Part shown: piece by piece, positions 1,802-28,970 of the stretch | Position numbering within the stretch: the stretch's first letter is position 1 | Layout of the letters: the number at the start of each line of letters is the position of its first letter | Assembly (NCBI GenBank): GCA_963661735.1 | Contig: CAVLCF010000111.1 | Location: 8,063 to 72,062, forward strand | DNA length: 64,000 nt | Source: a bacterium | GTDB taxonomy: Bacteria > Bacillota > Clostridia > Oscillospirales > Oscillospiraceae | Direction of reading: 5' to 3' | Translations under genes and position numbers: made by a program | The notes under the pieces: generated by a model | Seen by the model: the letters and a program-made list of their open reading frames with translations, nothing else | Databases searched by the model: none | Told to the model about the DNA's origin: nothing

Positions 1802-1840
1802 AATTTTCCCCTCCAGAAGGATTTTCTTTTGTATGATCTG

Positions 1841-1871
1841 CCATTGACGGTGCAAAGCCTCCCACTCACGG
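1841..1871 (+). promoter_or_regulatory. Candidate LytTR-regulator binding site: two 10-bp direct repeats with 21-bp period
   Basis: CCATTGACGG (1841-1850) and CCACTCACGG (1862-1871), 8 nt upstream of a -35 element. The 9-10 bp repeats with an ~12 bp spacer match the AgrA/LytTR box geometry. Confidence 0.55.
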
Positions 1872-1957: not shown

Positions 1958-3790
1958 ATGAAGAAATCTTCTCCAACCGCATCCGCAGAACGCTCCGGCG
2001 CAGTGCGCTTCTTCGCCATTGCGCTTGCCGTGCTTCTGCTCAGCTCCATTTTCATCTGGGGCTTCCAGACCTCTTGGGGTGATGTGCGCATTGAGCGGCT
2101 GCATCTGAATTCCCCTGACGGTACAAAGCTCAGCACACTGCTCTATATTCCCAAAAACGCGACGGCAGAGAATCCTGCTCCCTGCGCCGTCATTTATCAC
2201 GGCCGCTCCAATCAGGGCCACTCCAATGACACCTGGTCCATGGAGCTTGCCCGCAGAGGCTATGTAGTCCTCAGCCCGGACCTGACCGGCGGCGGCGAAT
2301 CCTACACCTTTGACGGAGGCTATTTCACGGATGGCCGCACCATGCAGGGTGTTGCGACACTGGATTACGCGCTGTCCCTGGACATTGTTGATCCGGAGCA
2401 GGTGAACCTCATCGGCTATTCCCTTGGCACAAACACCGCAACCCAGGTTGCCGCCGCGGAACCCGAAAAGGTCCACTCCGTCCTGAACGTTATGGGTCCC
2501 TTTATGATCCTGCGTTCCATGGATACCATCCACAAGCTGCTGACAGAGGATAATATCAGCTTTGGCATTCTGAAAGCCGACTGCGATCAGTATGACTACA
2601 GCTTTATCGGAACACCCGAGGAATGCCGTGTCAAGGTATCCGCCGCTCTGCAAATGGACACCGTGCTGACCCCGGATACAGATATTCCTTTCGGTGAAAC
2701 CAGCATCCTTCGCTACATCGAGGTATTCGGTACCATGCACCAGACGGGCAATATCAGCGCCGATACCATCAACGCCATCCTGTCCTTTGAGGATTCTCAG
2801 AACACTGCACCCATCTCTTTGGCAAACAGCGACCAGCAGTGGCTGCCTCAGCAGCTGTTCAGCGGCATCGCCTGCGTTACCATGATGTTTGCTCTGGCTG
2901 CTTTCCTGAATCTGCTGATGCAGACCCCTTTCTTCGGCTCCATCGCCTTTGCCCGTGTGCCTCGCAAGGAACTGCGCGGCGCAAAAGCCTGGCTCACAGA
3001 TATTCTTTTCACCTTCGTGATTCCCGCTGCTCTGTTCATCCCCGTATCCACATGGGGTATGAAGTGGTTTGCGAAAAGCAAAATCCTGACCTCTACAAAT
3101 CTGAACGGCATCATGCTCTGGCTGCTGATCGCCATGGGACTGATTGGCATTATCCGCATGATCGTAAAGGCGAACAAACGAAAGAAGAATGGCGAAACCA
3201 TCGCCCTCTCCGACTATTGCATCGCAGCAGCAGGAGACAACAGGTTCCATTGGAGCTATGTTGGCAAGGCATTCCTGATGGGCCTGATCGTTGTCTGCTT
3301 CTTTGGCCTCTGGATGACCGCTATGGAGGGCTTCCTGGGCATTGACTATCAGGTGTGGAACCTGTCCACTTATCTGAAGCCCAGCCCCGAGCGTATCGTA
3401 AAGTCCATTCCCTACATGATTATTATACTGATCGTTATGGGTCTTGGCAATATCAATCAGCGCGTGCTACCCTCTACCGGCAATGAACGCAAGGATCTGT
3501 GGATTGCCGTAGCTGTCAACACAGTTCTCACCGCCTCCGCCCTGTTTGTCCTGCTGGTCGTCCAGTACGGCGGAAGCCTGATGCTGGGAACCGGCCAGGT
3601 GCCCTTTGCCGGAGACGGCGGCAGCACCGGTGCTCTGGACTTCGCCTTTGGTTATTGCTACATGATGGGCGGAACCACCGGCGTTGTTACCTACCTGTAT
3701 CGGAAGCACGGTAATGTGCTTGCCGGCGTTATTCCCTGTGCCATGTTTGCCGGACTGTTCACTCTGGTTGGCTTTACACTGGTGCGCTGA
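1958..3790 (+). CDS. Signal-anchored alpha/beta-hydrolase fused to a polytopic membrane domain (paralog 1 of 5); uncharacterised family
   Basis: ATG 1958 in frame with track ORF 1208..3790. N-terminal TM segment FFAIALAVLLLSSIFIW. YIPKNATAENPAP..HG block, nucleophile elbow GYSLG, candidate His in GTMHQ. C-terminal ~300 aa is multi-TM with NQRVLPSTGNERKD and YLYRKHGN motifs. Confidence 0.8.
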   Translation: MKKSSPTASAERSGAVRFFAIALAVLLLSSIFIWGFQTSWGDVRIERLHLNSPDGTKLSTLLYIPKNATAENPAPCAVIYHGRSNQGHSNDTWSMELARRGYVVLSPDLTGGGESYTFDGGYFTDGRTMQGVATLDYALSLDIVDPEQVNLIGYSLGTNTATQVAAAEPEKVHSVLNVMGPFMILRSMDTIHKLLTEDNISFGILKADCDQYDYSFIGTPEECRVKVSAALQMDTVLTPDTDIPFGETSILRYIEVFGTMHQTGNISADTINAILSFEDSQNTAPISLANSDQQWLPQQLFSGIACVTMMFALAAFLNLLMQTPFFGSIAFARVPRKELRGAKAWLTDILFTFVIPAALFIPVSTWGMKWFAKSKILTSTNLNGIMLWLLIAMGLIGIIRMIVKANKRKKNGETIALSDYCIAAAGDNRFHWSYVGKAFLMGLIVVCFFGLWMTAMEGFLGIDYQVWNLSTYLKPSPERIVKSIPYMIIILIVMGLGNINQRVLPSTGNERKDLWIAVAVNTVLTASALFVLLVVQYGGSLMLGTGQVPFAGDGGSTGALDFAFGYCYMMGGTTGVVTYLYRKHGNVLAGVIPCAMFAGLFTLVGFTLVR

Positions 3791-3834: not shown

Positions 3835-3880
3835 CGGATAGATGTACACGCTCAGGCAAGTACATCTATCCGATTTCTTT
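3835..3880. terminator. Bidirectional rho-independent terminator between convergent genes
   Basis: 13-bp perfect arms CGGATAGATGTAC / GTACATCTATCCG (3835-3847, 3860-3872) followed by a TTTCTTT run. Confidence 0.7.
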
Positions 3881-4319
3881 ATTTATGACCAGCCACCCCG
3901 TTCGGGCCAATCGGCACAAAGGGCATTTCCACCGCAAACATACTGAAAAGCCCCTCGCAGAGCAGCTTCCCATCCTCACTTCGGATCTCCACCCGTACGC
4001 TGCATACCGTCCGGCCGGCGTGCAGGACGGTTCCCTCGGCGTACAGCGTTCCGTCGGACACATTTCCCAGGAACTGGAGGCTGGCGTTCTGGGTAACATA
4101 CTTTCTTCCATCCGTCAGCGCCGCAAGTCCCGCGGTGGTGTCCGCCATGCTCATGTAAAACCCACCGTGGACAATGCCATAATTGTTCCGCAGCTGGGGA
4201 CGGATAGGGGCGCTGACCTGGACACGCCCCAGCTCTGCCCGGAGAATGGACAGCCGATTGTCCTTCATAAAGGGTGTATTGTCTACCCGCTCATGGAGCC
4301 TGCGCTCGATCTCCGTCAT
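3879..4319 (-). CDS. PaaI-family hotdog-fold acyl-CoA thioesterase
   Basis: 146 aa with NNYGIVHGGFYMSMADTTAG and a hotdog-like C-terminal half. Its start overlaps the upstream stop by 4 nt (4316-4319). Confidence 0.8.
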   Translation of the reverse strand: MTEIERRLHERVDNTPFMKDNRLSILRAELGRVQVSAPIRPQLRNNYGIVHGGFYMSMADTTAGLAALTDGRKYVTQNASLQFLGNVSDGTLYAEGTVLHAGRTVCSVRVEIRSEDGKLLCEGLFSMFAVEMPFVPIGPNGVAGHK

Positions 4320-5617
4320 TTTTCCGCACTCCCTTCCAGTCTTTGCTCCAAACCGGAGCGCAGCAGCTTTGCCGCGCCCTCAACACCGCAGACCGATGTA
4401 TTCAGCGTCATTGCATAGTGGCAGGCCAGGCCCCAGGGCTCCCCCGTAAAGTGGCGGCAGTAGTTCTGACGGAAGCTGTCCTCCCGGCGAAGCCGCAGCA
4501 GGGCTTCCCGCTGGGACTCCTTCTTTTCATCCCGGATCCTCTCTGCCCGGAAAGTCTCGTCAGCGGTGACAAATACATGGAAGCAGTTTGCCCTGTTGCG
4601 CAGAATATAGCTTGCCAGCCGCCCCACAATGACGCAGCTTCCCGCGGCGGCATAGTCCTCGATCACCTTGCTCTGGGCGTAAAAAATCGCATCCTGCCTG
4701 GAAATGCTCTGACTGGACGCAAAGCTGGCCTGATAGAGCCCATACAGCAGCGGGCTGGAAAGCCGCTCCTCCTGCTGCCGGATGACTTCCTCGGAGAATC
4801 CGGTTTTTTCCGCCGTCTCCGCGATCAGCGCATAGTCATAGAACGGGATCCCCAGCTCTTTGGCAATACGCTGCCCGATCTCGTGGCCGCCGCTTCCAAG
4901 CTCTCGCTCTATGGTAATTACCAGCGGCGTGCCGGATCGCGCAGCCTTCCGGTCTGCCGTCTGCTCCGTTTCAAGCAGCTTATCCAGGAAATGGAATTTT
5001 CTGCTGTAGAGCTGCACAAACAGGCCCACCAGCACTGCCGCAAGAACCGTCCCCTCCCGGATACCCTCCAATCTGCCGAAGCCGATCAGGGACACGCAGC
5101 AGCTGACGATTACAAAGCCGCAGTCCAGGCCGATCTTCACCTTGCCGAATTCCAGGTGAAATACCTGAGCAAAGGCGCTGATGGCTCCTTCCGTGGCCAT
5201 GACGATCAAACCGGCCTTTACTTCCAGGTACAGGCCGAAGCCCATAACGGCGCAGCTTACAACGCACAGCGCCAGCCGCAGAGGATAAGCCGTCACCTGC
5301 ATGGCCGCTACCAGACCGTTGGTAAAGTCCGTGAAAAAGCCAAAGCACATCACAACGGCCAACTGAAGCAGTTGAATAGGATGGTAGTTCTTTCGCAGCA
5401 GCAAAATCTGGACAAGGACAAACACGATGTTGACAATGATCGTAAACGTACCCATAGATATGGGAAAAAGTCTGCACAGCAAATATGGCAGGCTTGCCGA
5501 CGGGGAAACGCCAAGGCCCGACTTTGTGGAAAGGGCCACACCCATGGCGATGAAAAACAGGCCGCTCAACAAAACCAACAGCCGGAGAACAAAACGCTTC
5601 AGTAAGTGTTTTTTCAC
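4316..5617 (-). CDS. Fusion protein: YczE/DUF6198-like membrane domain plus cytidylate-kinase-like P-loop domain
   Basis: GTG 5617 follows AGGAGG. The N-terminal ~210 aa is polytopic (LLVLLSGLFFIAMGVALSTKSGLGVSP). The C-terminal half has ITIERELGSGGHEIGQRIAKELGIPFYD and VIVGR, typical of the cytidylate-kinase-like family. Confidence 0.7.
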   Translation of the reverse strand: MKKHLLKRFVLRLLVLLSGLFFIAMGVALSTKSGLGVSPSASLPYLLCRLFPISMGTFTIIVNIVFVLVQILLLRKNYHPIQLLQLAVVMCFGFFTDFTNGLVAAMQVTAYPLRLALCVVSCAVMGFGLYLEVKAGLIVMATEGAISAFAQVFHLEFGKVKIGLDCGFVIVSCCVSLIGFGRLEGIREGTVLAAVLVGLFVQLYSRKFHFLDKLLETEQTADRKAARSGTPLVITIERELGSGGHEIGQRIAKELGIPFYDYALIAETAEKTGFSEEVIRQQEERLSSPLLYGLYQASFASSQSISRQDAIFYAQSKVIEDYAAAGSCVIVGRLASYILRNRANCFHVFVTADETFRAERIRDEKKESQREALLRLRREDSFRQNYCRHFTGEPWGLACHYAMTLNTSVCGVEGAAKLLRSGLEQRLEGSAEK

Positions 5618-5938
5618 GGTTCCTACCTCCTGAAAGAAAATCAAAACAGGCCCGAAGCAGTGTGGGAAACAAATCCAGAACTGCATCGAGCCCGTTTTCT
5701 TATGGAATTTGCAGTTCTTCCCATGCCCTCAAAAGTGCCCGGGATGTCCGCCCGTAGTTGCACCGGGCGGATATCCCCAGGCGCCGCGCCATACCTGCCG
5801 CAGGAATCAAAGAAAGGAAAAAAGAAATTACGGCAGAAAACCCATAGCGCAGTACTGAGAAGGAGGATTCTCATAGGAACAGAAGGGAACGGCTGCCTGA
5901 CCGATTCTCTTCTCTGGGTTTTCAAAGTCAATTGCGGC

Positions 5939-7186
5939 TCAGCCGATGCGCTTTACGTCGCAGGCTTCTCCCGCCTCGAACATAGCGTCAATTTCAGCCG
6001 CCGTATAACCGGCATCTGCCAGGACCGCTCTGGTGTCCTCGCCCAGGAAGTGGGCACGCTCATAAGGCGGCAGATCGGTTTCGGTGAAGATAACAGGCGT
6101 GCGGACCATGGTGCGGCTGTTGCCGCTGGGGAAATCGACCTTTGCCAGAATGTCGCTGGCCCAAGCCTGCTTGTCTTCCAGCACCTCATTCCAGGTCTGC
6201 GCCAGCGCTACAGGCATATCCGCCTTGCCCATGGCCTCGACCCAATATGCCATAGGCTTGGAGCCGATCTCAGAGACCATAATGTCGTAGAATTCATCCA
6301 GGTGATTCTGCAGATTGGTCTGGGGGTAGAATTTTTCATTATCCACCAGGTCCGGACGTCCCAGGACCTCCCCCACGAACTTGTTGTAGCAGGCGTCGTA
6401 ACGGGGCATGGCAAACATCAGCCAGCGGCCGTCGCTGGTCTTATGGACGACCTGAAGCTGATTTGCAAGCTGCTTGCGGCTGATGGGGTACTGGGTACCG
6501 GGGTCGCCGTACTGATTGGCGGACAGATACAGCGACACATCCCATACGCCGCTGTGGAACAGGCTGACTGTTACCTGGTCTCCCTGGCCGGTGGTCTTTG
6601 CGCGCAGCAGCGCCGCCAGGATGCCGCTGGCCAGATTCATGCCCACCTGGTGATCACCAAAGCCGGCAATAGGGGTCATGGGGATGGCATTCACATCATA
6701 CATGGTGCCCATAACGCCTGCCCGGGCAAAATAGGCGGTGAAGTCAAAGCCGGGCAGATCCTTATCCGGCCCCTTCTCGCCGTAGCCGCTGACAAAGCCA
6801 TAGACCAGCGCGGGATACTTCGCGTGGAGGGTCCCATAATCCAGCCCCATACGCTTCAGCGGAGATTGCCGGTTGTTGGTCACGAACACATCTGCCTTTG
6901 CCAGCAGCCGGTCCATGGCTTCCTTGCCCTTCTCCGTCTTCAGATTCAGCGTCACGGTCTTCTTGCCGGTATTCTCCAGGGTAAAGCTGGTATCCTCCTT
7001 GTCGCCGAAGGGGCGGCCCTCATTTACGGCCGTATAGCGCAGCGCGTCGCCGTTGGGGGCCTCTACCTTAATGACCTCGGCACCCAGGTCCGCCAGGTAC
7101 CGCGTGCAGCAGGGACCGGCAATAAAGGTGGCCAGCTCCACAACGTGAATGCCCTCCAGGGGGCGTTTGATCGTACTCATAAACAC
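5939..7186 (-). CDS. Family III (CaiB/BaiF) CoA-transferase, HadA/FldA-like
   Basis: LEGIHVVELATFIAGPCCTRYLADLGAEVIKVE N-terminus. 415 aa. Last gene of the dehydratase cluster. Confidence 0.85.
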   Translation of the reverse strand: MFMSTIKRPLEGIHVVELATFIAGPCCTRYLADLGAEVIKVEAPNGDALRYTAVNEGRPFGDKEDTSFTLENTGKKTVTLNLKTEKGKEAMDRLLAKADVFVTNNRQSPLKRMGLDYGTLHAKYPALVYGFVSGYGEKGPDKDLPGFDFTAYFARAGVMGTMYDVNAIPMTPIAGFGDHQVGMNLASGILAALLRAKTTGQGDQVTVSLFHSGVWDVSLYLSANQYGDPGTQYPISRKQLANQLQVVHKTSDGRWLMFAMPRYDACYNKFVGEVLGRPDLVDNEKFYPQTNLQNHLDEFYDIMVSEIGSKPMAYWVEAMGKADMPVALAQTWNEVLEDKQAWASDILAKVDFPSGNSRTMVRTPVIFTETDLPPYERAHFLGEDTRAVLADAGYTAAEIDAMFEAGEACDVKRIG

Positions 7187-7201
7187 AGCCTCTCTTTCAA
7201 A

Positions 7202-8317
7202 TCAAAGCATTTCCTTAAAGGTTTCAATGGCCGTTCTGGCCTGCTCGTAGTTCACCATCTGCCGGTCCACTTCAATGGAGGCAAAGGGAAGCTCCGCCGC
7301 CTCGCAGGCCCTCCGGATCAGCGGCGCGTCAAATTCTTCAGGGTCGCAGAATTTCGTCAGCGCAAACAAAACACCGTCCGCCTTTCGCTGCTTTGCCTGC
7401 TCCACGATCATGGACACACGCTTCTTCTCCACATCATATAGGAGGCTGCAATTGTCCATAGCGCAGAATTTCCGCGCCAGGCGGTCCAGAGGAGAACCCT
7501 CCGCCGGAGCATCCGTGCGGTACTGCCGGCTCTCGGCCGCCACATCATCTCCGACGATCTGCATACCGTTTTCATCCAGAATATCCAGCAGCGCCGGGGC
7601 ATCCAGCAAAATGCCGGTGGTATAGATCCGGGTCTTCTTCACGCCGGGCCGGGATTTTTGCAACGCATCAACCAGCGCCAGCGCCAGAGCGGTGTGTTCC
7701 TCCTTCAGCATGAAGAACGCGCTCTTGAAAATATCACTGCGCTGCCGGTTGGTAATTTCGGGGTGGTCTGCCAGCAGACCGCTCAGCATCCGCATGACCG
7801 CATTGTGTCGGTTGTAAATTTCCAGGCTTTCCTTGAGCTTTTCTTCCTCAAAGGTATTTCCGGTGGCCTTTTCCAGATCGCTGATGACCCGCCGATAGCC
7901 TGCCAGCGTGAAATCCACGCCGAAGTCCGTCTTCCGGTTCTGGGGATAGGTCATGGGAATGAACGGAATGGATGGCACCGCGTATTTCCAGTTCTCACCC
8001 ACTACCTTCAGGCTGTCACAGAGGCTGGGGATCACAATGGCGCTGGCGCCTGCGTAGGCTCCCCGCATCCCCAGCTCCACCATGCTCTGCACAATGGAGC
8101 AGATAAAGGCTGGAAAATAGCGTTTTGCCTCTTGCAGTTCCATGTCGCCGCCCCAGGCCCCCATAGGGACCATACCCATGGCGTGGATGATCTCCTCGGG
8201 CGTATACACAGGCGCTGTCAGAACGATCTTTTTACCGGCCGCCAGATAGGCATCCATCTGTGCTTTCGGATCGGAGGCAGCCGCATGAAAACGGTCCAGA
8301 ATCTCTTGCATCGTCAT
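7202..8317 (-). CDS. 2-hydroxyacyl-CoA dehydratase, beta/small subunit (HadC/FldC/HgdB-like)
   Basis: 371 aa, HgdB-like sequence. Starts 2 nt after the alpha subunit stop, so tightly coupled. Confidence 0.85.
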   Translation of the reverse strand: MTMQEILDRFHAAASDPKAQMDAYLAAGKKIVLTAPVYTPEEIIHAMGMVPMGAWGGDMELQEAKRYFPAFICSIVQSMVELGMRGAYAGASAIVIPSLCDSLKVVGENWKYAVPSIPFIPMTYPQNRKTDFGVDFTLAGYRRVISDLEKATGNTFEEEKLKESLEIYNRHNAVMRMLSGLLADHPEITNRQRSDIFKSAFFMLKEEHTALALALVDALQKSRPGVKKTRIYTTGILLDAPALLDILDENGMQIVGDDVAAESRQYRTDAPAEGSPLDRLARKFCAMDNCSLLYDVEKKRVSMIVEQAKQRKADGVLFALTKFCDPEEFDAPLIRRACEAAELPFASIEVDRQMVNYEQARTAIETFKEML

Positions 8318-8318
8318 A

Positions 8319-9554
8319 TCAGTTTGCCTCCTTGTTTGCTTCCATGATCTCCGTCAGGCCCTGGACGCGGGTATCATACTGGGCTTCGGAGAAGTTTCTG
8401 GGGTCCGCCTGGTCGCCGTCAAAGCTCGCTACAGGAATGTCGCAGGCCTGGCCGATCTGGCGGCTCATCTCATACATAAAGCCGCTCCACAGCTTGCAGC
8501 TGCGGTTGGTATGTACCAGCAGGCCCTCCACATGGTTGTCCTTGCAGAGCTTGATTCGCTTGTCTCTGGCATATTCCAGATTAATGGCATTGGGCACCTT
8601 GCAGTAGGCCCGGCACATATCGTCGAAATCCTTATAGATAAAACCGAACGCGTCCGCGTAAATGGTCGTGACCATATTGATGCCTCTGCTCTTCAGGCCG
8701 GTGGAAGTCACCCGCAGCCAGGGCCAGCAGGCGATGCCCTCAAACATGATCCGGTACTTTTCTTCGGCCCGGAAGGTGCTGACGCCCTTTTCGTGGTTGT
8801 CCTCGTATTCCTTTAACAGCGTTTCCATGGCTTCCGCGGCTTCCTTTTTGCCCCGGGCCGTCACCATGACCGCCATGTGATTCAGCAGATCAAAGCCATT
8901 GAAAGGAGATGGCTCATAATGGGCAGTCGCGGTAGCGGCCAGCCAGGCACGGCTGGTGCGGCCGGAATACTCCATGACCTCTTTATACTTTTCATCGCTC
9001 CACTTTTTTCCGGTCAACTTCTCCAACTGGTGGATGGCATCCCAGAACTGGGCCTTGACGTAAGCCACTTCCGCATCGGAAACCTCATAATCCGGATTGA
9101 ACGGAATATCGATCAGGATCATGGGGATATTCAGCTCTTTGGACAGATTTTCATACCACTTGATCATGCAGTTGCAGATGTTGTTGCAGCACAGCAGAAA
9201 ATCCGGCTGGGGCATATTCTGCTCCGGCGCGTCCTTGATTTTCGCGTAGGCCAGACTGATCCGGGCATAGGCGCAGATGTCATTGGAATAGCCGTCCGCT
9301 TCACTGATCTCGCACAGGCGGGCTCCGCCGCCCCGGGCCGCGATACCTGCCGCCTGGTTTTCGGGATAAACCACCGCCAGGCCCAACGTTTCCGGAATTT
9401 CCACAGGGAAATTAGAGGAACACCAACCGACCATTTCGCCCCGGTCCTTTGCCGCCTGGGCATCGGAGTACGCCTTTGCCGCGATCTGTCCCAGCTTATA
9501 CTTCGCGCTGTTGGGATCCGGGGGTGATCTGTGCTTTTTGACTTCTTCTGCCAT
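8319..9554 (-). CDS. 2-hydroxyacyl-CoA dehydratase, alpha/large subunit (HadB/FldB/HgdA-like)
   Basis: ATG 9554 lies 7 nt after GGAGG. The track ORF begins at a TTG 6 nt upstream. HgdA-like sequence with conserved Cys residues. Confidence 0.85.
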   Translation of the reverse strand: MAEEVKKHRSPPDPNSAKYKLGQIAAKAYSDAQAAKDRGEMVGWCSSNFPVEIPETLGLAVVYPENQAAGIAARGGGARLCEISEADGYSNDICAYARISLAYAKIKDAPEQNMPQPDFLLCCNNICNCMIKWYENLSKELNIPMILIDIPFNPDYEVSDAEVAYVKAQFWDAIHQLEKLTGKKWSDEKYKEVMEYSGRTSRAWLAATATAHYEPSPFNGFDLLNHMAVMVTARGKKEAAEAMETLLKEYEDNHEKGVSTFRAEEKYRIMFEGIACWPWLRVTSTGLKSRGINMVTTIYADAFGFIYKDFDDMCRAYCKVPNAINLEYARDKRIKLCKDNHVEGLLVHTNRSCKLWSGFMYEMSRQIGQACDIPVASFDGDQADPRNFSEAQYDTRVQGLTEIMEANKEAN

Positions 9555-9583
9555 ATTCAAACCTCCATAACAAAACTACAGTC

Positions 9584-10357
9584 TTATTTTGCCTTTTGCC
9601 AGGCATATCTGGCCGCGCCGATGGCGCCGAAGAGCTGCGCCCACTCCGAAAAAAGGATGGGGCAGCCGATGTCGCGCTCCAATGCCAGCCGAACGCCCGC
9701 ATTCTGGGCGACCCCGCCGCTCATGCAAACGTCCTTTTCTATGGTACACCGTTTGGCGAGTGACGCTACCCGTGCCGCCACCGATTCACAGATTCCCGCA
9801 ATCAGATCTGCCCTGTCTGCGCCGTTTGCCAGCTGACTGATAACCTCGCTTTCGGCAAACACCGTACAGGTACTGCTGATGGAAACAGCCTTTTTTGCTG
9901 CCTGCGCATACCGTGCCATGTCATTGACAGGGATCTGCAAAATCGTTGCCATAACGTCCAGGAACCTGCCCGTTCCCGCGGCGCACTTGTCGTTCATGAG
10001 GAAGTTCCGCATCTTTCCGTCCTGCGTCAGGGAGATCACCTTTGCGTCCTGCCCGCCGATGTCAATGATCGTGCGAACACTCGGGAATAAAAGATTCACG
10101 CCCAGCCCATGGCAGCTCAGTTCACTGACCTGGAAATCGGCATCCTCCCAGCGGTTCCGACCATAGCCGGTAGCGGCAACAGCCTGAATATCACTTCTGT
10201 CTACCCCAAGCCGCGCCATAGCCTTTCGGACGACCTCTGCCGGACTCTCTGTCCCGATCCCGCCAACCTGCAGTGCCGAAGCAGCAATGCGGGTTCCATT
10301 TTCCAGAATCGCGCATTTTGACGTTGTGGAGCCTATATCGATGCCCATTGTTATCAT
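9584..10357 (-). CDS. 2-hydroxyacyl-CoA dehydratase activator ATPase (HadI/FldI/HgdC, BcrAD_BadFG family)
   Basis: MITMGIDIGSTTSKCAILENG, DIGGQDAK, AAGTGRFL and a cluster-bridging Cys. 257 aa. Confidence 0.88.
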   Translation of the reverse strand: MITMGIDIGSTTSKCAILENGTRIAASALQVGGIGTESPAEVVRKAMARLGVDRSDIQAVAATGYGRNRWEDADFQVSELSCHGLGVNLLFPSVRTIIDIGGQDAKVISLTQDGKMRNFLMNDKCAAGTGRFLDVMATILQIPVNDMARYAQAAKKAVSISSTCTVFAESEVISQLANGADRADLIAGICESVAARVASLAKRCTIEKDVCMSGGVAQNAGVRLALERDIGCPILFSEWAQLFGAIGAARYAWQKAK

Positions 10358-13247: not shown

Positions 13248-15056
13248 TTAGATGCAGGTGTTCATAACGGAGTTCACGCCCATAAACATTGCCGTTACAA
13301 AGGCCGAGGTCCATGCGTTGCCGCTCTTCCGGTAGAGGAACGTATTTATGGATGCAGCAGCCGCAATGGTAAAGGACAGGCCGAAGTGAGAGTGGGCAAC
13401 CAGGTTATTGAACGCATTTTTCACGCCCGCCTGGGTCATTGTATTATACCCGAAGAACCACTGAACCAGGAGCAAAATGGTAATGCCAAGGCCGGCAATG
13501 ACCGCGTTCACAACCAGCGCCCGCAGGGTGTCCTTCCACTCGCAGCCGGTATCCGGCAGCCGACGCTCCACATTCATGCTCAGGCAGGAGAACAGGAAGG
13601 CTACAAAGAAGCACAGCACATAGGGGATGCATACGGTAATACGGTGGGACACAATGGGCGCAAAATTGATGAACCAGAAGTGCGGTGTCAGGCCCGTGAA
13701 AACCTCGATCTCCCGCAGCACAAAATTGACGATCAGCTCAACCACCAGGCCAAGGCACAGGGTGCTGACTATGAGCTCCCAATCAATGCCCTTCACCCCT
13801 GCACGAACCAATCCGTAGCTTTCAAGGTTGCCGCCGTGCTTCTTGCCGTCCGTTGCATGGAACACAAAGAACATCACGATTCCAAACGCGGTCAGGCAAG
13901 CCAGCCACAGCATGGTCATATTCAGGAAATAGGCCGGGAATAGTTTGCTGGAACGGCGGACTCCGGAAATTGCCTTGAGTTCAAAAAACACCATTGGCAG
14001 AATCACGCCCAGAACCGCGCTGATGGCAAAGCCCATCTTATTTCCGCCTGCAAGGAAACCAACATTTTGGGGCATAGGCTGACGGATTCTTCCAAAGGAG
14101 GGAACCATATCCATCAGCATACAGGCAGTAACCGGTACCAGAACGCAGATCAGGATGGACAAAACCAGACCAAAGGCCTCCCGGATTTCCCAAACGGAGC
14201 TGTCCGGGTCCACATAACGATAGTTGCACCCGTAAGCCTCAGCGCTCTTCATTGCGAACTCCGTCAGACGCGCCGTTGTTTCATGGTTAAAGGTACCGGC
14301 CGCATGGGTCATCGCGGTCTGCCCGAAATACTTGGCAGTGCCGTCTGCAAAGCTGCCGTAAACCTTGCCGACTTCAATCTGATCGTTGCTGGTAATGCCG
14401 AATTGCTCAAAGTCGGTGTACAGAGGCGCCAGCCAGCCGTCAACCAGAATGCCCTCCTTGCCGTTCTGGGCAACGGTATCCTTGGTGCCCTGATAATACA
14501 TAACGTTGCAGGGATAGGGCTCGCACTGGTTGGTATTTACCAGAATCACGCACTTTACCTGGTCTGGGTAATCCTCCGCAAGGACACGGCAAGGATTTCC
14601 TCCCTGAGAGATGCCAGCCAGCGTAATGTTATCAGACTGAACGATGGGCAGGGTCAGCGCGTAATCCATCATCGTCTTTACCGGCTCAATAATGTAGTTG
14701 TACCGAGCATCCCGGGCAGTAACGGAATACTTTTCGGACGCACCGCCGCCGGCGCCGTCAGGCAGCAGGCACACGAAACCTCTGCGGGCCATTTCCAGGC
14801 CCCAGGTCTCCATGGCGCGGGCATCCGCGGAACCGCCGTGACAGTCCACAAACAAAGGCGCAGGATTTTCGTTGGTTGCGTTGGCAGGGATCATCATCAG
14901 ACCGCTGTAGGTCAGTCCGTCGTCACCGACCAACTCAATGCGCTTGATTTTTACAAAGCCCTTGCTGGAAGCAAAATAGGACATGCACACGGTGCACATC
15001 AAAATTGCAGCCAGCAGGATCAGGAAAACTCTTGCATAAATGGATTTCTTTTTCAT
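13248..15056 (-). CDS. Signal-anchored alpha/beta-hydrolase plus polytopic membrane domain (paralog 2 of 5)
   Basis: MKKKSIYARVFLILLAAILMC anchor, IPANATNENPAP..CHGG, elbow GISQG. C-terminal TM domain with MNVERRLPDTGCEWKD and FLYRKSGN. Confidence 0.8.
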   Translation of the reverse strand: MKKKSIYARVFLILLAAILMCTVCMSYFASSKGFVKIKRIELVGDDGLTYSGLMMIPANATNENPAPLFVDCHGGSADARAMETWGLEMARRGFVCLLPDGAGGGASEKYSVTARDARYNYIIEPVKTMMDYALTLPIVQSDNITLAGISQGGNPCRVLAEDYPDQVKCVILVNTNQCEPYPCNVMYYQGTKDTVAQNGKEGILVDGWLAPLYTDFEQFGITSNDQIEVGKVYGSFADGTAKYFGQTAMTHAAGTFNHETTARLTEFAMKSAEAYGCNYRYVDPDSSVWEIREAFGLVLSILICVLVPVTACMLMDMVPSFGRIRQPMPQNVGFLAGGNKMGFAISAVLGVILPMVFFELKAISGVRRSSKLFPAYFLNMTMLWLACLTAFGIVMFFVFHATDGKKHGGNLESYGLVRAGVKGIDWELIVSTLCLGLVVELIVNFVLREIEVFTGLTPHFWFINFAPIVSHRITVCIPYVLCFFVAFLFSCLSMNVERRLPDTGCEWKDTLRALVVNAVIAGLGITILLLVQWFFGYNTMTQAGVKNAFNNLVAHSHFGLSFTIAAAASINTFLYRKSGNAWTSAFVTAMFMGVNSVMNTCI

Positions 15057-15077: not shown

Positions 15078-16871
15078 TTATCCGATGCTGAACGCACCCA
15101 GAGGATAGGTCTGGCCATAGAGGCAGGCAGCCAGGCAGCAGATGATACCCATCAGGAAGGCACCAAGCCAGATATTGCCGGTCTTGCGGTAAGCATAGGT
15201 ATTACCGGTGCCGGCCAGGAACATTCCCACGGGCATACCCCAGATTCTGGTAATGTCCGTTCCCCAATTCGGCAGTGCCGCCCCCTGTGTGCTGCCCATG
15301 TGGATCTGCACGGCATTTTCGATAATAACCATGACTGTAATGCTTGCGGTTGCCAGTAGGCCATTGAACAAAACAGCGATCACATCATCCAGCTTTTCGT
15401 TGCCTGTGGAGGGAAGACGGCGTTCAACATTCATGCCCACAGCGGCAATCGCGAAGCTGGGGATCCAAATCAGCAGATAAGGAATGTAATAGACGAATTT
15501 CTTCAGCTCGATATCCTTGAAACCGAAGAACAGGCAATAGAAGTCGGTACCGAGAATATCATCCTGCATCTTCATGTAGGTAAAGCCGGTAAATACGGAA
15601 AAGGCCGCCACCAGGAAAGCCTTGCCAACCATGCTCCACTGGATCTTGGTCTTGCCCTCGGCGGTCAGGCCAAGATCCCGCAGATTCGCATGGGCCTTCC
15701 TGCCGTCCGTGGCCATGTACAGGAAGAACATCAACAGGCCGAACAGATTCAGCTCCGCAACGATCACCACAGCATAGTGGGCAAAGCGTACCCGGAAGAC
15801 AGTATCCGCCAGATTTCTGGCGCCTCCCAAGGCATTGATCAGACCGAAGCCGCCAGTATAAAGCACGATCAAGGGGAAAACCAATGCCATCACAATGCTG
15901 ATCGCCAGGCCTACCCCGCGCAGGCCCACATTTCTGGGCAGCGGCTGCTTCAATTCCGCCAGAACCGGCATCTGGTCGATCAGCATCAGTGCCAGATTCA
16001 GCATAAACGCCACAAACACAAACATTCCGATCAGGCCCAGAGCATCCTTCCAGAACCAGACCTGATTCTCAGCGTCAATATACTTTACAGGGGAAACAAT
16101 CTGCTGAGAAAAGTCCAGAATAGCGGCAATATGTTTGGAATTGACAAATACACCCTCGTGGATCTGATCCTTGATCCGCACGAACTTGTGGGCATTGCCC
16201 TCCTCTATGCTGCCGTATACAACATTCTGCTCCACCGTCTCACCCCGCGCCAGGACGCCGTCATTCGCGAACTGCTTGGAGATGGTATCTTCATACTTTC
16301 CCTCGGGGCAAGCCTTGTCCGCTGTACCGGCTACAACCAGATAGGCATGCTCCAGCTGCCGTTCCGTGTTGAACTCTTTGCCGCCGCCATCTGAAACAAT
16401 GGTCAGCGCAGGCTGGAACCGCAGGCCCATCTCCTGCGTGAAATCACCGCCGATGGAGTGACCGGATAGGATGATCTTTGTGTTGTCCACAATGGGGCAG
16501 TCATACAGATAGCGGGTAAACAGGTCGCAGATTGCGTATCTGTCTCTGCCATTGTACTCACTGTTTCCGGAGCCAAGGTTGTCGACCGCGATGACAACAT
16601 AGCCGCGGCGTGCATATTCCATCGCCCATGCCTCGTGGTTTCTGCCATTGCCGGAACCACCGTGATACATCATGATGCCGGGTGCCGGCGTATCATTTGT
16701 GGCATTTTTCGGAATGTACATCAGAGCGCTGTTGCTGAGCCCATCGTCTCCGATCAGCGTCAGGCGTTGAATCTTGACATTTCCCCAGCCGGAAACCACG
16801 CCCCAATTGAGTATGGAAACCAGCAGAAGCAATACCAGATTGATGAGAAATACCTTTGTCGTTTTTTTCAT
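15078..16871 (-). CDS. Signal-anchored alpha/beta-hydrolase plus polytopic membrane domain (paralog 3 of 5)
   Basis: ATG 16871 follows GAAGGAGG (codon 28 of the track ORF). YIPKNATNDTPAP..YHGGSGNGRN, elbow GHSIG, His in QIHEG, MNVERRLPSTGNEKLD, IWGMPVGM, YAYRKTGN. Only 21 nt separate it from paralog 2, so they are likely co-transcribed. Confidence 0.82.
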   Translation of the reverse strand: MKKTTKVFLINLVLLLLVSILNWGVVSGWGNVKIQRLTLIGDDGLSNSALMYIPKNATNDTPAPGIMMYHGGSGNGRNHEAWAMEYARRGYVVIAVDNLGSGNSEYNGRDRYAICDLFTRYLYDCPIVDNTKIILSGHSIGGDFTQEMGLRFQPALTIVSDGGGKEFNTERQLEHAYLVVAGTADKACPEGKYEDTISKQFANDGVLARGETVEQNVVYGSIEEGNAHKFVRIKDQIHEGVFVNSKHIAAILDFSQQIVSPVKYIDAENQVWFWKDALGLIGMFVFVAFMLNLALMLIDQMPVLAELKQPLPRNVGLRGVGLAISIVMALVFPLIVLYTGGFGLINALGGARNLADTVFRVRFAHYAVVIVAELNLFGLLMFFLYMATDGRKAHANLRDLGLTAEGKTKIQWSMVGKAFLVAAFSVFTGFTYMKMQDDILGTDFYCLFFGFKDIELKKFVYYIPYLLIWIPSFAIAAVGMNVERRLPSTGNEKLDDVIAVLFNGLLATASITVMVIIENAVQIHMGSTQGAALPNWGTDITRIWGMPVGMFLAGTGNTYAYRKTGNIWLGAFLMGIICCLAACLYGQTYPLGAFSIG

Positions 16872-17005
16872 TGCTTTGCCTCCTTCTTTCTTCCGGACAG
16901 AGTTTTCTGTCGTTTTCGAGGCCATTGTATGCATCGACTTTGGCGCAAGCAATGCGCTGTGCGTATCTGGTCATTTTCGCTTCCTAACTGAGCATATTGA
17001 GGAAG

Positions 17006-17034
17006 TTGACATATATTCGAATCGTTGCTATAAT
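17006..17034 (+). promoter_or_regulatory. Consensus sigma-70 promoter of TCS-2
   Basis: TTGACA (17006-17011), 17 nt, TATAAT (17029-17034). Confidence 0.6.
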
Positions 17035-17145: not shown

Positions 17146-17862
17146 ATGTGGACCATTGGTATCTGTGATGACGAGCAGGATATGCGCACGCAGCTGAAGG
17201 ATGCCCTTTTGCGCTTCAGTGGGGAAGCCAATGAGCCGTTGGAATTTATTTGTTATCGAAGTGCCGAAGAGCTCATTCAGGAAATCTCCCCGAAAGTTGA
17301 CATTCTGCTGCTGGATATCCGAATGGGCAAGTTGTCCGGCATGGAGGCCGCCCGCAGACTGCGGGACAAAGGATTCCAGCTCCCCATTATTTTCATTACA
17401 ACCATGGCGCAGTATGCTATTGAGGGATACTCCGTTCATGCATTCAGCTTTCTGAAAAAGCCAATACAGTACCAGCAACTGAAGCTTGTTCTCTGCGATG
17501 CCATCCGCATGCTGCGCCGCAGCCGGGGCGATAGCATCCAGCTGACGTGGAACGGGCAGACCACGCACGTCCAGACCCAGGACATTTTGTATCTGGAGGC
17601 ATATGGGCACCGCGTGGATATGCATATGGTGAACGGAGAAATTCTCCCCTGTTCCCCCTCCCTGTCCGAACTGGAAGAGGAGCTTGGTCCGTTTGGATTC
17701 TACCGCGCGCACAAGAGTTACCTCATCAATTTTGAATATCTGCAAAAAGTCGAATTGACAGCAATCGTTTTTGCGAATGGTCTTGCGCTGCCCCTCAGCA
17801 AACATCGCCGGAAAGATCTCCGTATTGCATTTGCCAACTATTGCGGGAGGAATATACTATGA
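17146..17862 (+). CDS. LytTR-family response regulator (TCS-2)
   Basis: ATG 17146 follows GGGAGG. MWTIGICDDEQ...LLLDIRMGKLSG receiver domain. LytTR domain FYRAHKSYLINF...PLSKHRRKDL. Confidence 0.88.
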   Translation: MWTIGICDDEQDMRTQLKDALLRFSGEANEPLEFICYRSAEELIQEISPKVDILLLDIRMGKLSGMEAARRLRDKGFQLPIIFITTMAQYAIEGYSVHAFSFLKKPIQYQQLKLVLCDAIRMLRRSRGDSIQLTWNGQTTHVQTQDILYLEAYGHRVDMHMVNGEILPCSPSLSELEEELGPFGFYRAHKSYLINFEYLQKVELTAIVFANGLALPLSKHRRKDLRIAFANYCGRNIL

Positions 17863-22305: not shown

Positions 22306-22745
22306 GGGGACCTTATATCCGTCCCAATCCGTTCAAGCAAATCCCTGGTCCGCAGCAGAAAGCCCCTGCAACAGTCCGCATTGCCGCGACGCGGTGCAGG
22401 CTTTCAAAGCGCACCGGTTTCCCTTATTGTGAATGCGTCAGCGGAAGTCTTTGGCCAACCAGGCTTCAAAAGCGTCCAACTGGGCTTAGCATATTGAAGA
22501 TTGTAAAAAAAGATGATAATCTAGCAATATCCAGGGGAAACATTGTAGAATTTGACAGTGCATACCGATTTTCCACGCCTATACATGCATTGCCTCCGGC
22601 CGGAAATTCTGCGTCTTTCCCGGAGTATGGAAGAGAATGCCATTTTTTGCCATTCCGTACCACGGCATACCTGGCGAGCCATCTTTTTCCTCACCCCGTA
22701 TAGCCGTAACTGACAAATTCCTGAAAAGAAGGAGACACGAGACCT

Positions 22746-24539
22746 ATGAACGAACGATCCTCCGTAAAAAAACATGCTGTCAGATTCTTTCTGTTTGCTT
22801 TGGCCGCCCTTCTGGTATGTTCCATTCTGAACTGGGGCGTTGTATCCAGCTGGGGCAGCGTAAAAGTAACCCGTCTTACCATTATCGGGGATGACGGCCG
22901 GCAGTACAGCGCATTATCCTACATTCCCAAAACCGCTACAAATGAAACCCCCGCGCCCGCTCTGCTCACCATTCACGGCGGCTCTTCCAATGCGAGAAAC
23001 AACGAGTCCTGGAGCATGGAATTTGCCCGACGCGGCTACGTTGTCATCGCAGTTGATAACTTTGGCGGCGGAGACAGCGAATACGTATCCGCCTACGGCC
23101 CCAATGCCGTTCCCGAAATGTTCTATGAACTTCTCCTGAGCATGGATATTGTCGATAAGGATCAGATTATCACCAACGGCCACAGCTGGGGCAACGACGC
23201 CGCCTATTCTCTTGGTCTCAAGTACAACGCGCGCGCAATTCTGATCAGTTCCGGCAATGGTTCTACCACCGGAGGCGAATTTACCGGCAACATGCTGCAG
23301 GTTTTCGGCGGCGTTGAAAACGTAGACACCGTAGAGAACAACACCGCAAACGCAGTCGCCGCCTTCAGCACAAGCTTTCCTGAGCTGACCGTCGATAACA
23401 TTGAAATCGGCAAAATCTATGGCAGCTTTGAAGAGGGCAATGCCAAGCAGCTGATAATAAGCCCTAAGCAGGTTCACGAAGGCGCAATGGTCCATACAGA
23501 CACCACAGCCGCTCTGCTGGATTTCGCCCAACAGGCAACTACAGCCCCCAATTATATCGATGCCAACAATCAGGTTTGGTATTGGAAAGACGCAGCCGGT
23601 CAGCTTGGTATCATCGCTTTCGTTGTCTTTCTGCTCAGTTTCGCAAATCTGCTGATGACCTGTGTTCCCTTCTTCTCTGCCATTGTTCAGCCTCTGCCCC
23701 GTAATATCGGTCTGAGACACACTGGCATGGCAATCAGCATCATTGCAGGTCTGGCATTCCCCGTAATTTCCTTATACACCGGCGGCTTGGGCCTAAAGAA
23801 GCTCATTGGCATTGCAGGCAAAAGCACTCTGAACCAGATTTTCTCCATGCGCGCGGGCAACTTCCCCTTCTTCGCTTTTGTGGGTATTGCGCTGCTTGGC
23901 ATCATCATGTTTTTCGTGTACCATTTCACCGACGGCAGAAAACACCACGCCAAACTATGCGATTATGGCCTTACCAGCGCCGCCAGAGACAAACTCGACT
24001 GGTCTTTGATTGGACGGAGCGCCCTTTTGGCTGCCGTCGTCATTATGGTCGGCTGGAACTATATCAACGCGCAAACCCATATTCTGGGAACTGACTTCTA
24101 CTGCCTGTACTGGGGCGTTAAGGACATCGCCAGCGTGAAATTTGTTCACTATATTCCCTATATCATTGTCTACTGTCTGCTGTTCATCCCCGCCTCCCTG
24201 GGACTGAACGTGGAGCGCCGACTGCCATCTACAGGCAAAGACAGCCTGGACTTCTTCCTGCAAACTGTCTTTAACATGTTTATGGCAAGCGCAGCCATCA
24301 CCGCAGTCGTTCTCATTCAGAACGCCATGCAGCATGCCATGGTTGGCGGCGGCAGTGCCGCTCTTGCCGGCTTCGGCATTGAAATTGTACGTATCTGGGG
24401 AATGCCTGTTGGAATGCTGGCAGCCGGTGCAGGCCAGACCTACATGTACCGGAAGTCCGGCAGTGTTTACCCCGGAGCTTTCCTGATGGGTACCTATTGT
24501 GCCCTGACCTGTGTTCTGTACGCTCAGACAAGAATCTAA
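22746..24539 (+). CDS. Signal-anchored alpha/beta-hydrolase plus polytopic membrane domain (paralog 4 of 5)
   Basis: FFLFALAALLVCSIL anchor, YIPKTATNETPAP..IHGGSSNARN, elbow GHSWG, His in QVHEG, LNVERRLPSTGKDSLD, IWGMPVGM, YMYRKSGS. Confidence 0.82.
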   Translation: MNERSSVKKHAVRFFLFALAALLVCSILNWGVVSSWGSVKVTRLTIIGDDGRQYSALSYIPKTATNETPAPALLTIHGGSSNARNNESWSMEFARRGYVVIAVDNFGGGDSEYVSAYGPNAVPEMFYELLLSMDIVDKDQIITNGHSWGNDAAYSLGLKYNARAILISSGNGSTTGGEFTGNMLQVFGGVENVDTVENNTANAVAAFSTSFPELTVDNIEIGKIYGSFEEGNAKQLIISPKQVHEGAMVHTDTTAALLDFAQQATTAPNYIDANNQVWYWKDAAGQLGIIAFVVFLLSFANLLMTCVPFFSAIVQPLPRNIGLRHTGMAISIIAGLAFPVISLYTGGLGLKKLIGIAGKSTLNQIFSMRAGNFPFFAFVGIALLGIIMFFVYHFTDGRKHHAKLCDYGLTSAARDKLDWSLIGRSALLAAVVIMVGWNYINAQTHILGTDFYCLYWGVKDIASVKFVHYIPYIIVYCLLFIPASLGLNVERRLPSTGKDSLDFFLQTVFNMFMASAAITAVVLIQNAMQHAMVGGGSAALAGFGIEIVRIWGMPVGMLAAGAGQTYMYRKSGSVYPGAFLMGTYCALTCVLYAQTRI

Positions 24540-24664
24540 CCAATATACCCGACTGTCTCCGCAAGGCAGTCGGGTCTTCGGTTCCGGCACACAATATTGC
24601 CGGAGCTTTTTTCTCGCTGTTATTGACCTTTGTATATTTGCTTCAAAACCTCCGCCTCAGCATA

Positions 24665-24714
24665 TTGATTTTTACAGCAGCATTATGCTATAATGGCAGA
24701 AGCTAGTTAACTAA
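24665..24714 (+). promoter_or_regulatory. Promoter of TCS-3 with a downstream CTAGTTAACTAA palindrome
   Basis: TTGATT (24665-24670), 18 nt, TATAAT (24689-24694), then CTAGTTAACTAA at 24703-24714. Confidence 0.5.
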
Positions 24715-24741: not shown

Positions 24742-25455
24742 ATGGTCAAAAAAATAGCCGTCTGCGATGACAGCGCTTTAGCGCTGCGGCAAACCGCCGG
24801 GTATTTTGAACAGCTCCAAAAGGAGCTGCCTTTTGAACTCTGCCCCTCCTACTTTTCCTCCGGCGAAGAGGTGCTTGCCGGGCTGGCGGAGGATACGGAC
24901 CTGCTGCTGTTGGATATTGCCATGGAGGGCATGAACGGCATTGAATGCGCCAAGGCCCTGCGGGCCAGAGGATCGAAATTTCCCATTGTGTTCATTACCA
25001 GCATGACGGAATATGCCATAGCAGGCTATGCGGTCCACGCCTTTGGCTTTCTTCCGAAGCCCGTCACCTATTCGGACTTCGCCGCCATCATAAGAGAGGC
25101 GTTGGCCGCGTCTGAAAAAAAGCCAAAAAAGCTGCTGGTCAAAACCGCAGAGGGTGTCAGCGCCATTGATCCTCAGGAGCTGATTTACGCCGAGGTTTAC
25201 CAGCATGAAACCAGCTTTCATCTGCTGACCGGACGCATTCAGGGCAATGTACAGCTTGGCTCCATCGAACCTCTGCTTCCCGCTGAAGGTTTTTTCCGCT
25301 GTCACAAAAGCTATCTTGTTTCCCTGGAGCAAATCGCATCCATCGGGCGGGACGCGCTGACAATGCGTGATGGCAGCAGCATTCCCTTGAGCAAACACCG
25401 CCGGAAAGCTTTTCTCGATGCCTACAGCCGTTTTGCGGGGGTGCGGTTTGAATGA
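24742..25455 (+). CDS. LytTR-family response regulator (TCS-3)
   Basis: ATG 24742 follows AGGAGG. KKIAVCDDS...LLLLDIAMEGMNG receiver domain. LytTR domain FFRCHKSYLVSL...PLSKHRRKAF. Confidence 0.88.
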   Translation: MVKKIAVCDDSALALRQTAGYFEQLQKELPFELCPSYFSSGEEVLAGLAEDTDLLLLDIAMEGMNGIECAKALRARGSKFPIVFITSMTEYAIAGYAVHAFGFLPKPVTYSDFAAIIREALAASEKKPKKLLVKTAEGVSAIDPQELIYAEVYQHETSFHLLTGRIQGNVQLGSIEPLLPAEGFFRCHKSYLVSLEQIASIGRDALTMRDGSSIPLSKHRRKAFLDAYSRFAGVRFE

Positions 25456-28724: not shown

Positions 28725-28867
28725 GTTCTTTCTCCCTTCATTTATTTTGTCTGATAAATTGATATTTTTTCCTTATCAGCATGGCGATATTGTACAAAAA
28801 TTCTTCAAAAAGTGCAATATTTCTTGCATATATGGCACATAACGCCCCGCCACTGGGAAAGGTTTTT

Positions 28868-28921: not shown

Positions 28922-28970
28922 AAAAAAACCGGTCGTCTGGCTCACACAAATGGGAACAAGCCAAGCGACC
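28922..28970 (-). terminator. Rho-independent terminator ending the acd...MFS operon
   Basis: Minus-strand stem GGTCGCTTGGCT / AGCCAGACGACC (two G-U-type mismatches) followed by TTTTTTT. Confidence 0.65.

Follow-up and report, generated by a model that had tools for sequence, protein, structure and literature searches.

The closest described systems to the locus considered here are controlled by LytTR regulators, whose operators contain direct repeats. ComE acts on 9-base-pair (bp) direct repeats with a 12-bp spacer. The AgrA sites of Staphylococcus aureus (P2/P3) are 9-bp imperfect repeats, [TA][AC][CA]GTTN[AG][TG], which lie 12-13 bp apart and 5' of the -35 hexamer (PMC5600425). The VirR motif, CCAnTT(n15)CCAGTT, has a register of 21 nucleotides (nt), lies on one helix face and is found immediately 5' of the -35; both boxes are required, and 5-bp insertions between them impair activation (PMC4963840, PMC2838878). 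Regulators of the HdrR/BrsR type use ACCACTTAC-12-ACCACTTAC (9-12-9), located 8-10 bp before the -35 (PMC6193735, Tables 2-3). Here, we consider a pair of direct repeats at positions 1841-1871 of a 64,000-nt stretch of Oscillospiraceae DNA (contig CAVLCF010000111.1, positions 8,063 to 72,062; hereafter the window, by which the whole stretch is meant). The pair is located in the divergent region between the gene of a LytTR response regulator, RR-1, which is followed by the gene of its putative partner kinase, HK-1, and the gene of a membrane hydrolase, hyd-1. Judging from sequence comparison, we estimate a probability of about 0.8 that the repeats are functional LytTR sites controlling hyd-1, i.e., that they are the operator of the adjacent RR-1. 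The features of this module are the following (positions count from the first letter of the window).

1841-1850, + strand: distal LytTR-type box 1, CCATTGACGG; centre at about -70 from the predicted start site, which falls at about 1915; score 11.2 with the matrix built from other genomes

1862-1871, + strand: proximal LytTR-type box 2, CCACTCACGG; centre at about -49; score 12.5 with the same matrix

1880-1908, + strand: hyd-1 core promoter from the consensus scan; TTGAAC (1880-1885), 17-nt spacer, TATAAT (1903-1908)

1958-3790, + strand: hyd-1, 610-aa membrane hydrolase with an N-terminal transmembrane (TM) anchor, an alpha/beta-hydrolase domain and a C-terminal domain of about 7 TM segments

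1082-1801, - strand: RR-1, response regulator with receiver and LytTR domains and a GTG start; predicted binder of the boxes

1-1091, - strand: HK-1, AgrC/HPK10-like histidine kinase with a multi-TM N-terminus, the H-box HHDMKNH and the N-box GNILDNAIE

The two boxes are identical at 8 of 10 positions, are separated by 11 nt and start 21 nt apart; the gap between box 2 and TTGAAC is 8 nt (1872-1879). The consensus scan gives TTGAAC-17-TATAAT as the sole promoter-like site in 1700-2100, with 10 of 12 consensus positions, and 49 nt lie between TATAAT and the hyd-1 ATG (1958). The whole divergent spacer (1802-1957) is 156 nt long, with GGAGGGG preceding the GTG start of RR-1 and AGGAAAGGG preceding the ATG of hyd-1. 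An initial annotation, made from the sequence of the window, had described the boxes with their 21-nt start spacing, the promoter 8 nt past them and the regulator at 1082-1801. All of these elements were found where it had placed them, and the regulator lies on the - strand and has receiver and LytTR domains. It had also likened the arrangement of repeats and spacer just 5' of the -35 to that of LytTR activators, and this arrangement does match the published AgrA, VirR and HdrR/BrsR promoters.

Written as 9-mers, the site reads GCCATTGAC-12-CCCACTCAC-10-TTGAAC. LytTR operators consist of at least two imperfect repeats of about 9-10 bp; two such repeats precede hyd-1, three to four boxes precede hyd-2 and two precede hyd-4, both of which are paralogs of hyd-1 in the window. 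The 12-13 bp between 9-mers that is typical of these operators (a 21-22-nt register on the same helix face) is also seen, with 21 nt at all three window promoters. LytTR repeats lie 4-11 bp before the -35 and point to the regulated gene (PMC6193735), and at hyd-1 the -35 follows 8 nt after the 10-mer, which equals 10 nt after the 9-mer. The sequence of the boxes was compared by eye with CCAGTT (VirR), [CA]GTT (AgrA) and CCACTTAC (HdrR/BrsR type) (PMC4963840, PMC5600425, PMC6193735) and resembles LytTR sites; the family core is C2 A3 T5 T6 (A/G)7 C8 G9, from which both window boxes deviate at T6. A LytTR regulator is encoded nearby, as PF04397 and PF00072 match RR-1 as well as the two paralogous regulators of the window, RR-2 and RR-3, and this adjacency is conserved across genomes. 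The boxes and the promoter 8 nt downstream of them very probably form a canonical LytTR-activated promoter that would drive hyd-1.

Much of the support for this reading comes from other genomes. The sample of loci was obtained by a one-genome-per-species scan, which gave 63 loci, and by contig look-ups, which added 15. The hydrolase family numbers at least 739 homologues, most of which come from Clostridia of gut and rumen, and the relatives of the locus come from Oscillospiraceae, Faecalibacterium and Flavonifractor-like metagenome-assembled genomes. As found with tblastn, a LytTR regulator and a kinase immediately adjoin the hydrolase in 25 of 58 non-redundant loci (~40%), either divergently or in the order regulator, kinase, hydrolase, and the other neighbour genes vary from locus to locus. 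Since the neighbourhoods change around the trio, kinase, regulator and hydrolase are the only conserved unit. The hydrolase upstream regions of the system-adjacent loci contain direct repeats in a 20-21-nt register (e.g., TCACTTACGA twice, or GCAGTTGCGA/GCAGTTACGC), and a 70%-identical ortholog of the hyd-1 locus carries CCAGTTGCGG/CCATTGACGG before its hydrolase gene. In the family consensus of the boxes, sCAnTTACGr, the positions C2, A3, T5, C8 and G9 are nearly invariant. Among the non-redundant loci of other genomes, box pairs scoring at least 19.7 were found in 20 of 25 loci with an adjacent system vs 0 of 33 without it (Fisher P=2.9e-11); the five lower-scoring system-adjacent loci form one subgroup with variant boxes (GCAYTTAGGA, GCAGATATGC). 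Of the 20 strong pairs, 17 have a register of 21 nt and 3 one of 20 nt. When 572 kilobases (kb) of related loci, duplicate contigs included, were scanned for strong pairs (score of at least 18), 23 of 25 were located just upstream of a hydrolase gene and on its strand, and no strong pair was found in this sequence upstream of the regulator in co-directional loci.

The spacing to the promoter follows the same pattern. Of 27 promoters, 16 have a -35-like hexamer, TTGnnn, exactly 8 nt past the proximal box and followed by a -10 at a distance of 16-18 nt, and most of the other offsets are 28, 29 or 49 nt, i.e., 8 plus one or two steps of 20-21 nt, which is consistent with the presence of extra degenerate boxes; for six loci, no promoter passed the filter of this survey. 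The sequence of the boxes varies with the regulator: all loci with a regulator at least 47% identical to RR-1 have CCAnTnnCGG boxes similar to those of the window, and distant regulator clades carry GCA/TCAnTTACGA boxes. At closer range, six metagenome contigs of a close strain (L073-L078), which belong to the same 90%-identity cluster of RR-1 proteins and share one intergenic allele, have box 2, the 8-nt gap, the -35 and the -10 unchanged. Their box 1, CCATTGGCGG, differs by one substitution, A to G, at matrix position 7, where the family has either A or G, and most of their differences from window positions 1802-1860 fall between the start codon of RR-1 and box 1. Locus L064, an ortholog with 84% identity, also has box 2 unchanged, and its hexamers are TTGAAA and TATAGT. 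The claim of the initial annotation that the hydrolase would be the direct output of the adjacent system gains support from this comparison, namely from the conservation of the trio, the association of box pairs with the system, the spacing and the clade-specific flavour of the boxes.

The window itself was scanned on both strands for box pairs with a family matrix of 10-mers, which was derived from 20 loci in other genomes and contains no window sequence. The pair at 1841-1871 ranks first (score 23.8), followed by the boxes of the hyd-2 promoter (28898-28847; 23.2 and 23.0). The next hit (17.9) falls inside a coding region, and rank 5 (16991-16961; 15.9) belongs to the hyd-4 promoter, so that ranks 1-3 and 5 are each directly upstream of a hydrolase paralog and on its strand. 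A paired box pattern with at most 3 mismatches occurs 3 times in the window vs 0.03 expected, the two occurrences other than hyd-1 overlapping each other upstream of hyd-2. An Rfam scan of the whole window gave no match, and thus no riboswitch or leader explains the hyd-1 upstream region.

The window contains three LytTR systems and five hydrolase paralogs, and the same predicted circuit is present in it three times (hyd-1; hyd-2; hyd-4/hyd-5), as a three-gene module that recurs in many Clostridia. The elements of the two other modules are listed below.

28826-28898, - strand: hyd-2 boxes in a 21-nt register; CCATTCACGC (28898-28889), CCATTCACGC (28877-28868), CCAGTGGCGG (28856-28847) and a degenerate CCATATATGC (28835-28826)

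28789-28817, - strand: hyd-2 core promoter, TTGCAC-17-TACAAT; the -35 matches the consensus at 3 of 6 positions

26814-28724, - strand: hyd-2, 636 aa; paralog with 26% full-length identity to hyd-1

24742-25455, + strand: RR-2, LytTR response regulator

25452-26759, + strand: HK-2, HATPase_c_5 kinase

16961-16991, - strand: hyd-4 boxes; TCAGTTAGGA (16991-16982), 11 nt, CCAGATACGC (16970-16961); pair score 15.9

16924-16952, - strand: hyd-4 core promoter, TTGCTT-17-TACAAT, 8 nt past the proximal box, read from the sequence; the -35 matches at 3 of 6 positions

15078-16871, - strand: hyd-4, hydrolase paralog

13248-15056, - strand: hyd-5, hydrolase paralog, 22 nt from hyd-4

17146-17862, + strand: RR-3, LytTR response regulator, divergent from hyd-4

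ending at 19181, + strand: HK-3, kinase gene after RR-3

The hyd-4 promoter follows the same grammar as that of hyd-1, and hyd-4 and hyd-5 are likely to form one operon. At hyd-2, the -35 is located 8 nt past the degenerate fourth box and 29 nt past box 3, and the 8-nt rule therefore holds only when counted from the fourth; a locus with an RR-2-like regulator (L004, 47%) also has four boxes, the 8-nt gap and TTTACA-17-TAATCT. The hyd-2 promoter was not listed by the consensus scan because of its weak -35. The regulator and kinase genes have promoters of their own, at 24665-24694 for RR-2/HK-2 (10 of 12 consensus positions) and at 17006-17034 for RR-3/HK-3 (TTGACA-17-TATAAT, 12 of 12), and both are without boxes. 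The poor -35 hexamers of hyd-2 and hyd-4, together with the box-free promoters of the regulator/kinase genes, fit activator-dependent targets and give no sign of positive autoregulation. RR-1, RR-2 and RR-3 each contain receiver and LytTR domains with intact phospho-acceptor residues. The initial annotation had counted four box copies at two loci; the total is at least eight to nine boxes at three loci, and the third module, that of hyd-4, was absent from its finding.

The remaining paralog, hyd-3 (22746-24539), was not counted as a box target, as no box pair is present upstream of it. A single box in reverse orientation, TCAGTTACGG (22704-22713, - strand), is found 33 nt before its ATG and is compatible with chance. 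The hyd-3 gene lies directly upstream of RR-2/HK-2, with a terminator-like hairpin (24580-24607) between them. An 18-nt inverted repeat followed by a T-run (28925-28976) is located between a major facilitator superfamily transporter gene (28981-30222, - strand) and the hyd-2 boxes. This element resembles a terminator, which would insulate hyd-2 from upstream transcription, although the strict terminator scan did not list it.

Several observations weigh against the assignment of the hyd-1 boxes to RR-1 or against their function. Taken alone, the repeat is only marginally non-random: Markov resampling of the 156-nt intergenic region yields an 8/10 match at exactly 21 nt in 3.9% of cases (P about 0.04), or in 17.7% when 19-23 nt are allowed, and 26 of the 410 real tiles of this length in the window (6%) contain a match at exactly 21 nt. 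An exact-seed repeat finder, which does report perfect 10-mers at hyd-2, reported no direct repeat in the hyd-1 region, where the boxes share no exact 6-mer. A single pair score of 23.8 can also be reached in random 64-kb sequences, the maxima of which have a mean of 17.1, a standard deviation of 2.6 and a highest value of 25.8; hence, the case rests on the location and conservation of the hits, not on the score. At position 6, the two hyd-1 boxes have G and C, where the family consensus has T. The core promoter is already good (10 of 12) and could be active in the absence of an activator, which is the chief internal caveat to strict activator dependence. Refinement of the family matrix used the very loci in which strong pairs were counted, which makes that comparison partly circular. 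As the window encodes three paralogous regulators with similar boxes, it is not certain which of them binds at any one site. Two tests are free of the circularity: the matrix from foreign loci applied to the window, as described above, and a matrix of four window boxes applied to the foreign loci. The latter separates the foreign loci with the system from those without it (Mann-Whitney P=8.6e-10) and favours the hydrolase strand (Wilcoxon P=7e-4). It is highly improbable that the hyd-1 repeat is a chance similarity or a part of some other element, as its design recurs at three window promoters and, in other loci, at no fewer than 20 promoters of orthologs or paralogs, and no Rfam family matches in the window. 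The other element that could be considered is an inverted repeat of 12 nt with 92% complementarity, TTGACGGTGCAA (1844-1855)/TTGAACCGTCAA (1880-1891), that extends over box 1 and the -35. This candidate was rejected: it is absent in L064 and L001, is reduced to 9/12 without compensation in the strain variants, and is probably fortuitous.

If the boxes are genuine, the question arises which gene and which regulator they serve. RR-1 might bind them mainly for repression or autoregulation of the divergent RR-1/HK-1 operon and not for activation of hyd-1. The compact 156-nt intergenic region is in line with this. With just 39 nt between box 1 and the start codon of RR-1, the promoter of RR-1/HK-1 has to overlap the boxes. 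A weak - strand candidate, TTGCAC (1856-1851)-16-TACAAA (1834-1829), does overlap box 1, and no other - strand promoter is shown by the consensus scan. However, the -10 of this candidate becomes CACAAA in the strain variants, and the scan itself finds no promoter on the - strand; no reliable RR-1/HK-1 promoter was found. In 70%-identical orthologs, the likely -10 of the regulator (TATAAT within TTATTATAAT) is roughly 50-90 nt from the boxes. In addition, 15 of the 25 non-redundant system-adjacent loci have the order regulator, kinase, hydrolase, and in these the boxes are located between the kinase stop and the hydrolase start, with none upstream of the regulator; box orientation and the fixed 8-nt offset likewise relate to the hydrolase promoter. 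Autoregulation as the main role is, in our view, unlikely, and negative feedback on RR-1/HK-1 could accompany hyd-1 activation. It might also be proposed that the boxes are real LytTR sites read mainly by RR-2 or RR-3, or by several regulators, in which case hyd-1 would not be a private output of RR-1. The three regulators are encoded in the same window, RR-2 and RR-3 are 35-37% identical to RR-1, and all window boxes share the core CCA/CAnTnnCG. Yet the pairing of one regulator with one adjacent hydrolase is maintained from genome to genome, and the flavour of the boxes follows the regulator clade: CCAnTnnCGG in the RR-1 clade, a terminal C in the hyd-2 boxes, and TCAGTTAGGA/CCAGATACGC at hyd-4. 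We therefore consider a paralogous binder improbable and retain the reading in which RR-1 acts at the boxes upstream of hyd-1.

The mechanism that can be proposed for RR-1 control of hyd-1 starts with HK-1, a polytopic AgrC-type kinase by its domains and motifs, which by analogy would sense a membrane or extracellular cue. HK-1 is cut by the window start; its full length is 439 aa in the strain variants. The kinase would phosphorylate Asp58 of RR-1, in which the receiver residues are present (the acidic pocket Asp8/Asp9, Asp58, Thr86 and Lys106). Two LytTR domains of RR-1 would then bind the repeats centred at about -70 and -49; as these centres are two helical turns apart, both domains would be placed on one DNA face. 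Bound RR-1 may recruit or position RNA polymerase at TTGAAC-17-TATAAT, as described for AgrA and VirR. The output would be an extracytoplasmic, membrane-tethered, carboxylesterase-like enzyme with the domain of about 7 TM segments, the fold being predicted and the orientation in the membrane presumed. In hyd-1, Ser155 (in GYSLG), Asp210 and His261 are invariant columns of the alignment and are the predicted catalytic triad. The AlphaFold model has a mean predicted local distance difference test (pLDDT) score of 77 and a predicted template modelling (pTM) score of 0.78. A fold search of the PDB relates its N-terminal domain to feruloyl esterases, to thermophilic lipases and to the PET46 esterase, with E of about 1e-8 to 1e-9; at the sequence level, the hits are an MHETase and the PET46 alpha/beta hydrolase (9pjb, 8b4u).

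The C-terminal domain of hyd-1 (window 2822-3790, residues about 290-610) is highly conserved and is present in all paralogs (e.g., TSxNLNGIMxWL, GALDFAFGYCYMMGGTTGVVTYLYRK). A Pfam search at E up to 1 gave only sub-threshold hits for it (FAR-17a/AIG1, 19 bits vs a cut-off of 24.5), and the fold search, whose PDB matches all fall on the N-terminal hydrolase domain, gave no relative of the C-terminal domain. None of the NCBIfam equivalog models reaches its cut-off for the three hydrolases, two regulators (RR-1 and RR-2) and one kinase that were scanned.

Hydrolase homologues without an adjacent two-component system are regulated differently, and many of them show a different upstream element. 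Two copies of a 12-bp palindrome, ATAACrYGTTAT, are found over the promoter, about 40-100 nt before the start (L012-L017, L022, L026, L031, L033, L034, L042, L043, L046, L052 and L053); by its sequence, it looks like a putative operator of a different regulator, and it is absent from the window. Other homologues (L002, L005, L027 and L035-L040) are encoded immediately downstream of a 2-hydroxyacyl-CoA dehydratase gene or of a butyrate-kinase-like gene, the latter gene being read by eye from the translated upstream fragment. Next to hyd-1, window positions 3879-10357 encode a thioesterase, a DUF6198/cytidylate-kinase-like protein, a family III CoA-transferase and two HGD-D dehydratase subunits with their activator. 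The hydrolases have a feruloyl-esterase/lipase-like domain and often adjoin 2-hydroxyacyl-CoA dehydratase or acyl-kinase genes in other genomes. These neighbourhoods hint that the esterases are metabolically tied to the fermentation of 2-hydroxy acids; that the hydrolases release fermentable acids from esters is plausible but speculative. A further idea is that the trio is a widespread signalling module in which the hydrolase serves as the sole dedicated output and at the same time as a co-sensor. Its strongly conserved domain of about 7 TM segments would report substrate turnover to a kinase without an obvious extracellular domain, similar to Bce-type transporter/kinase pairs, and the esterase would be tuned to the availability of an ester substrate for the fermentation genes nearby, those of the 2-hydroxyacyl-CoA dehydratase and the CoA-transferase. 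We regard this idea as unlikely.

The LytTR promoter design is textbook, and the understanding of LytTR regulators is not changed by this locus. Its value is in a testable link between regulator, operator and target for a three-gene module common in gut and rumen Clostridia. The boxes may serve as a reporter handle for the inducing signal, and hence the substrate, of a membrane esterase family in the microbiome. Literature searches for a described LytTR-hydrolase module returned nothing relevant.

When the locus is compared with the described systems, different likenesses can be distinguished. The initial annotation had labelled the repeats with the name of AgrA, and the label is right as to geometry, which is shared (PMC5600425); HK-1 is also an AgrC-like kinase of the HPK10 type with HATPase_c_5. 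It does not hold for Agr quorum sensing: the similarity of the RR-1 LytTR domain to AgrA is weak (E about 5e-4), and no AgrB or AgrD family member was found among the called neighbours in about 15 related loci or among the scanned open reading frames of the window, in which not every small frame was scanned. There is no sign of positive autoregulation either, as Agr-type autoactivation boxes are lacking upstream of the regulator in co-directional loci and the RR-2/HK-2 and RR-3/HK-3 promoters are box-free. By its gene content and predicted promoters, the hyd-1 locus is not an Agr quorum-sensing locus. VirS/VirR of Clostridium perfringens (pfoA, vrr and ccp promoters) is similar in combining a clostridial LytTR regulator with a polytopic kinase, and its imperfect direct repeats, CCAnTT/CCAGTT, have the same 21-nt register; the closest orthologs of the hyd-1 locus carry CCAGTTGCGG. 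The likeness to VirR was judged from the layout of the boxes and the type of regulator and kinase, and the 3' half of the box differs (...GCGG/ACGG here vs ...nnnCAC in VirR). The target also differs, being a single adjacent membrane hydrolase, whereas VirR controls toxins and a regulatory RNA.

The promoter grammar is identical to that of HdrRM/BrsRM from Streptococcus mutans and others, i.e., 9-12-9 and then 8-10 bp to the -35 (PMC6193735), and ACCACTTAC of the HdrR/BrsR type overlaps the family core CCAcTTAC of the window-related loci. However, the HdrR/BrsR regulators have no receiver, are paired with a small inhibitor protein of the membrane that holds them back, lack a kinase and activate the operon that encodes them, whereas the window regulators have a receiver with Asp/Thr/Lys and an adjacent HATPase_c_5 kinase, and their predicted boxes would drive a separate hydrolase gene. 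Given the receiver domain and the kinase, both recognised from sequence, the window modules are not of the HdrRM type. The best solved structural relative of RR-1 is ComE of Streptococcus pneumoniae (4cbv; E 3.9e-11, spanning the receiver and LytTR domains), but ComE controls competence in response to a peptide pheromone and has ComC/ComAB as partners, for which the hyd-1 locus has no counterpart. Compared with all of these systems, the design of the hyd-1 promoter is that of an ordinary LytTR cis-element, and the part without a described counterpart is the module of kinase, regulator and membrane esterase together with its threefold expansion in the window.

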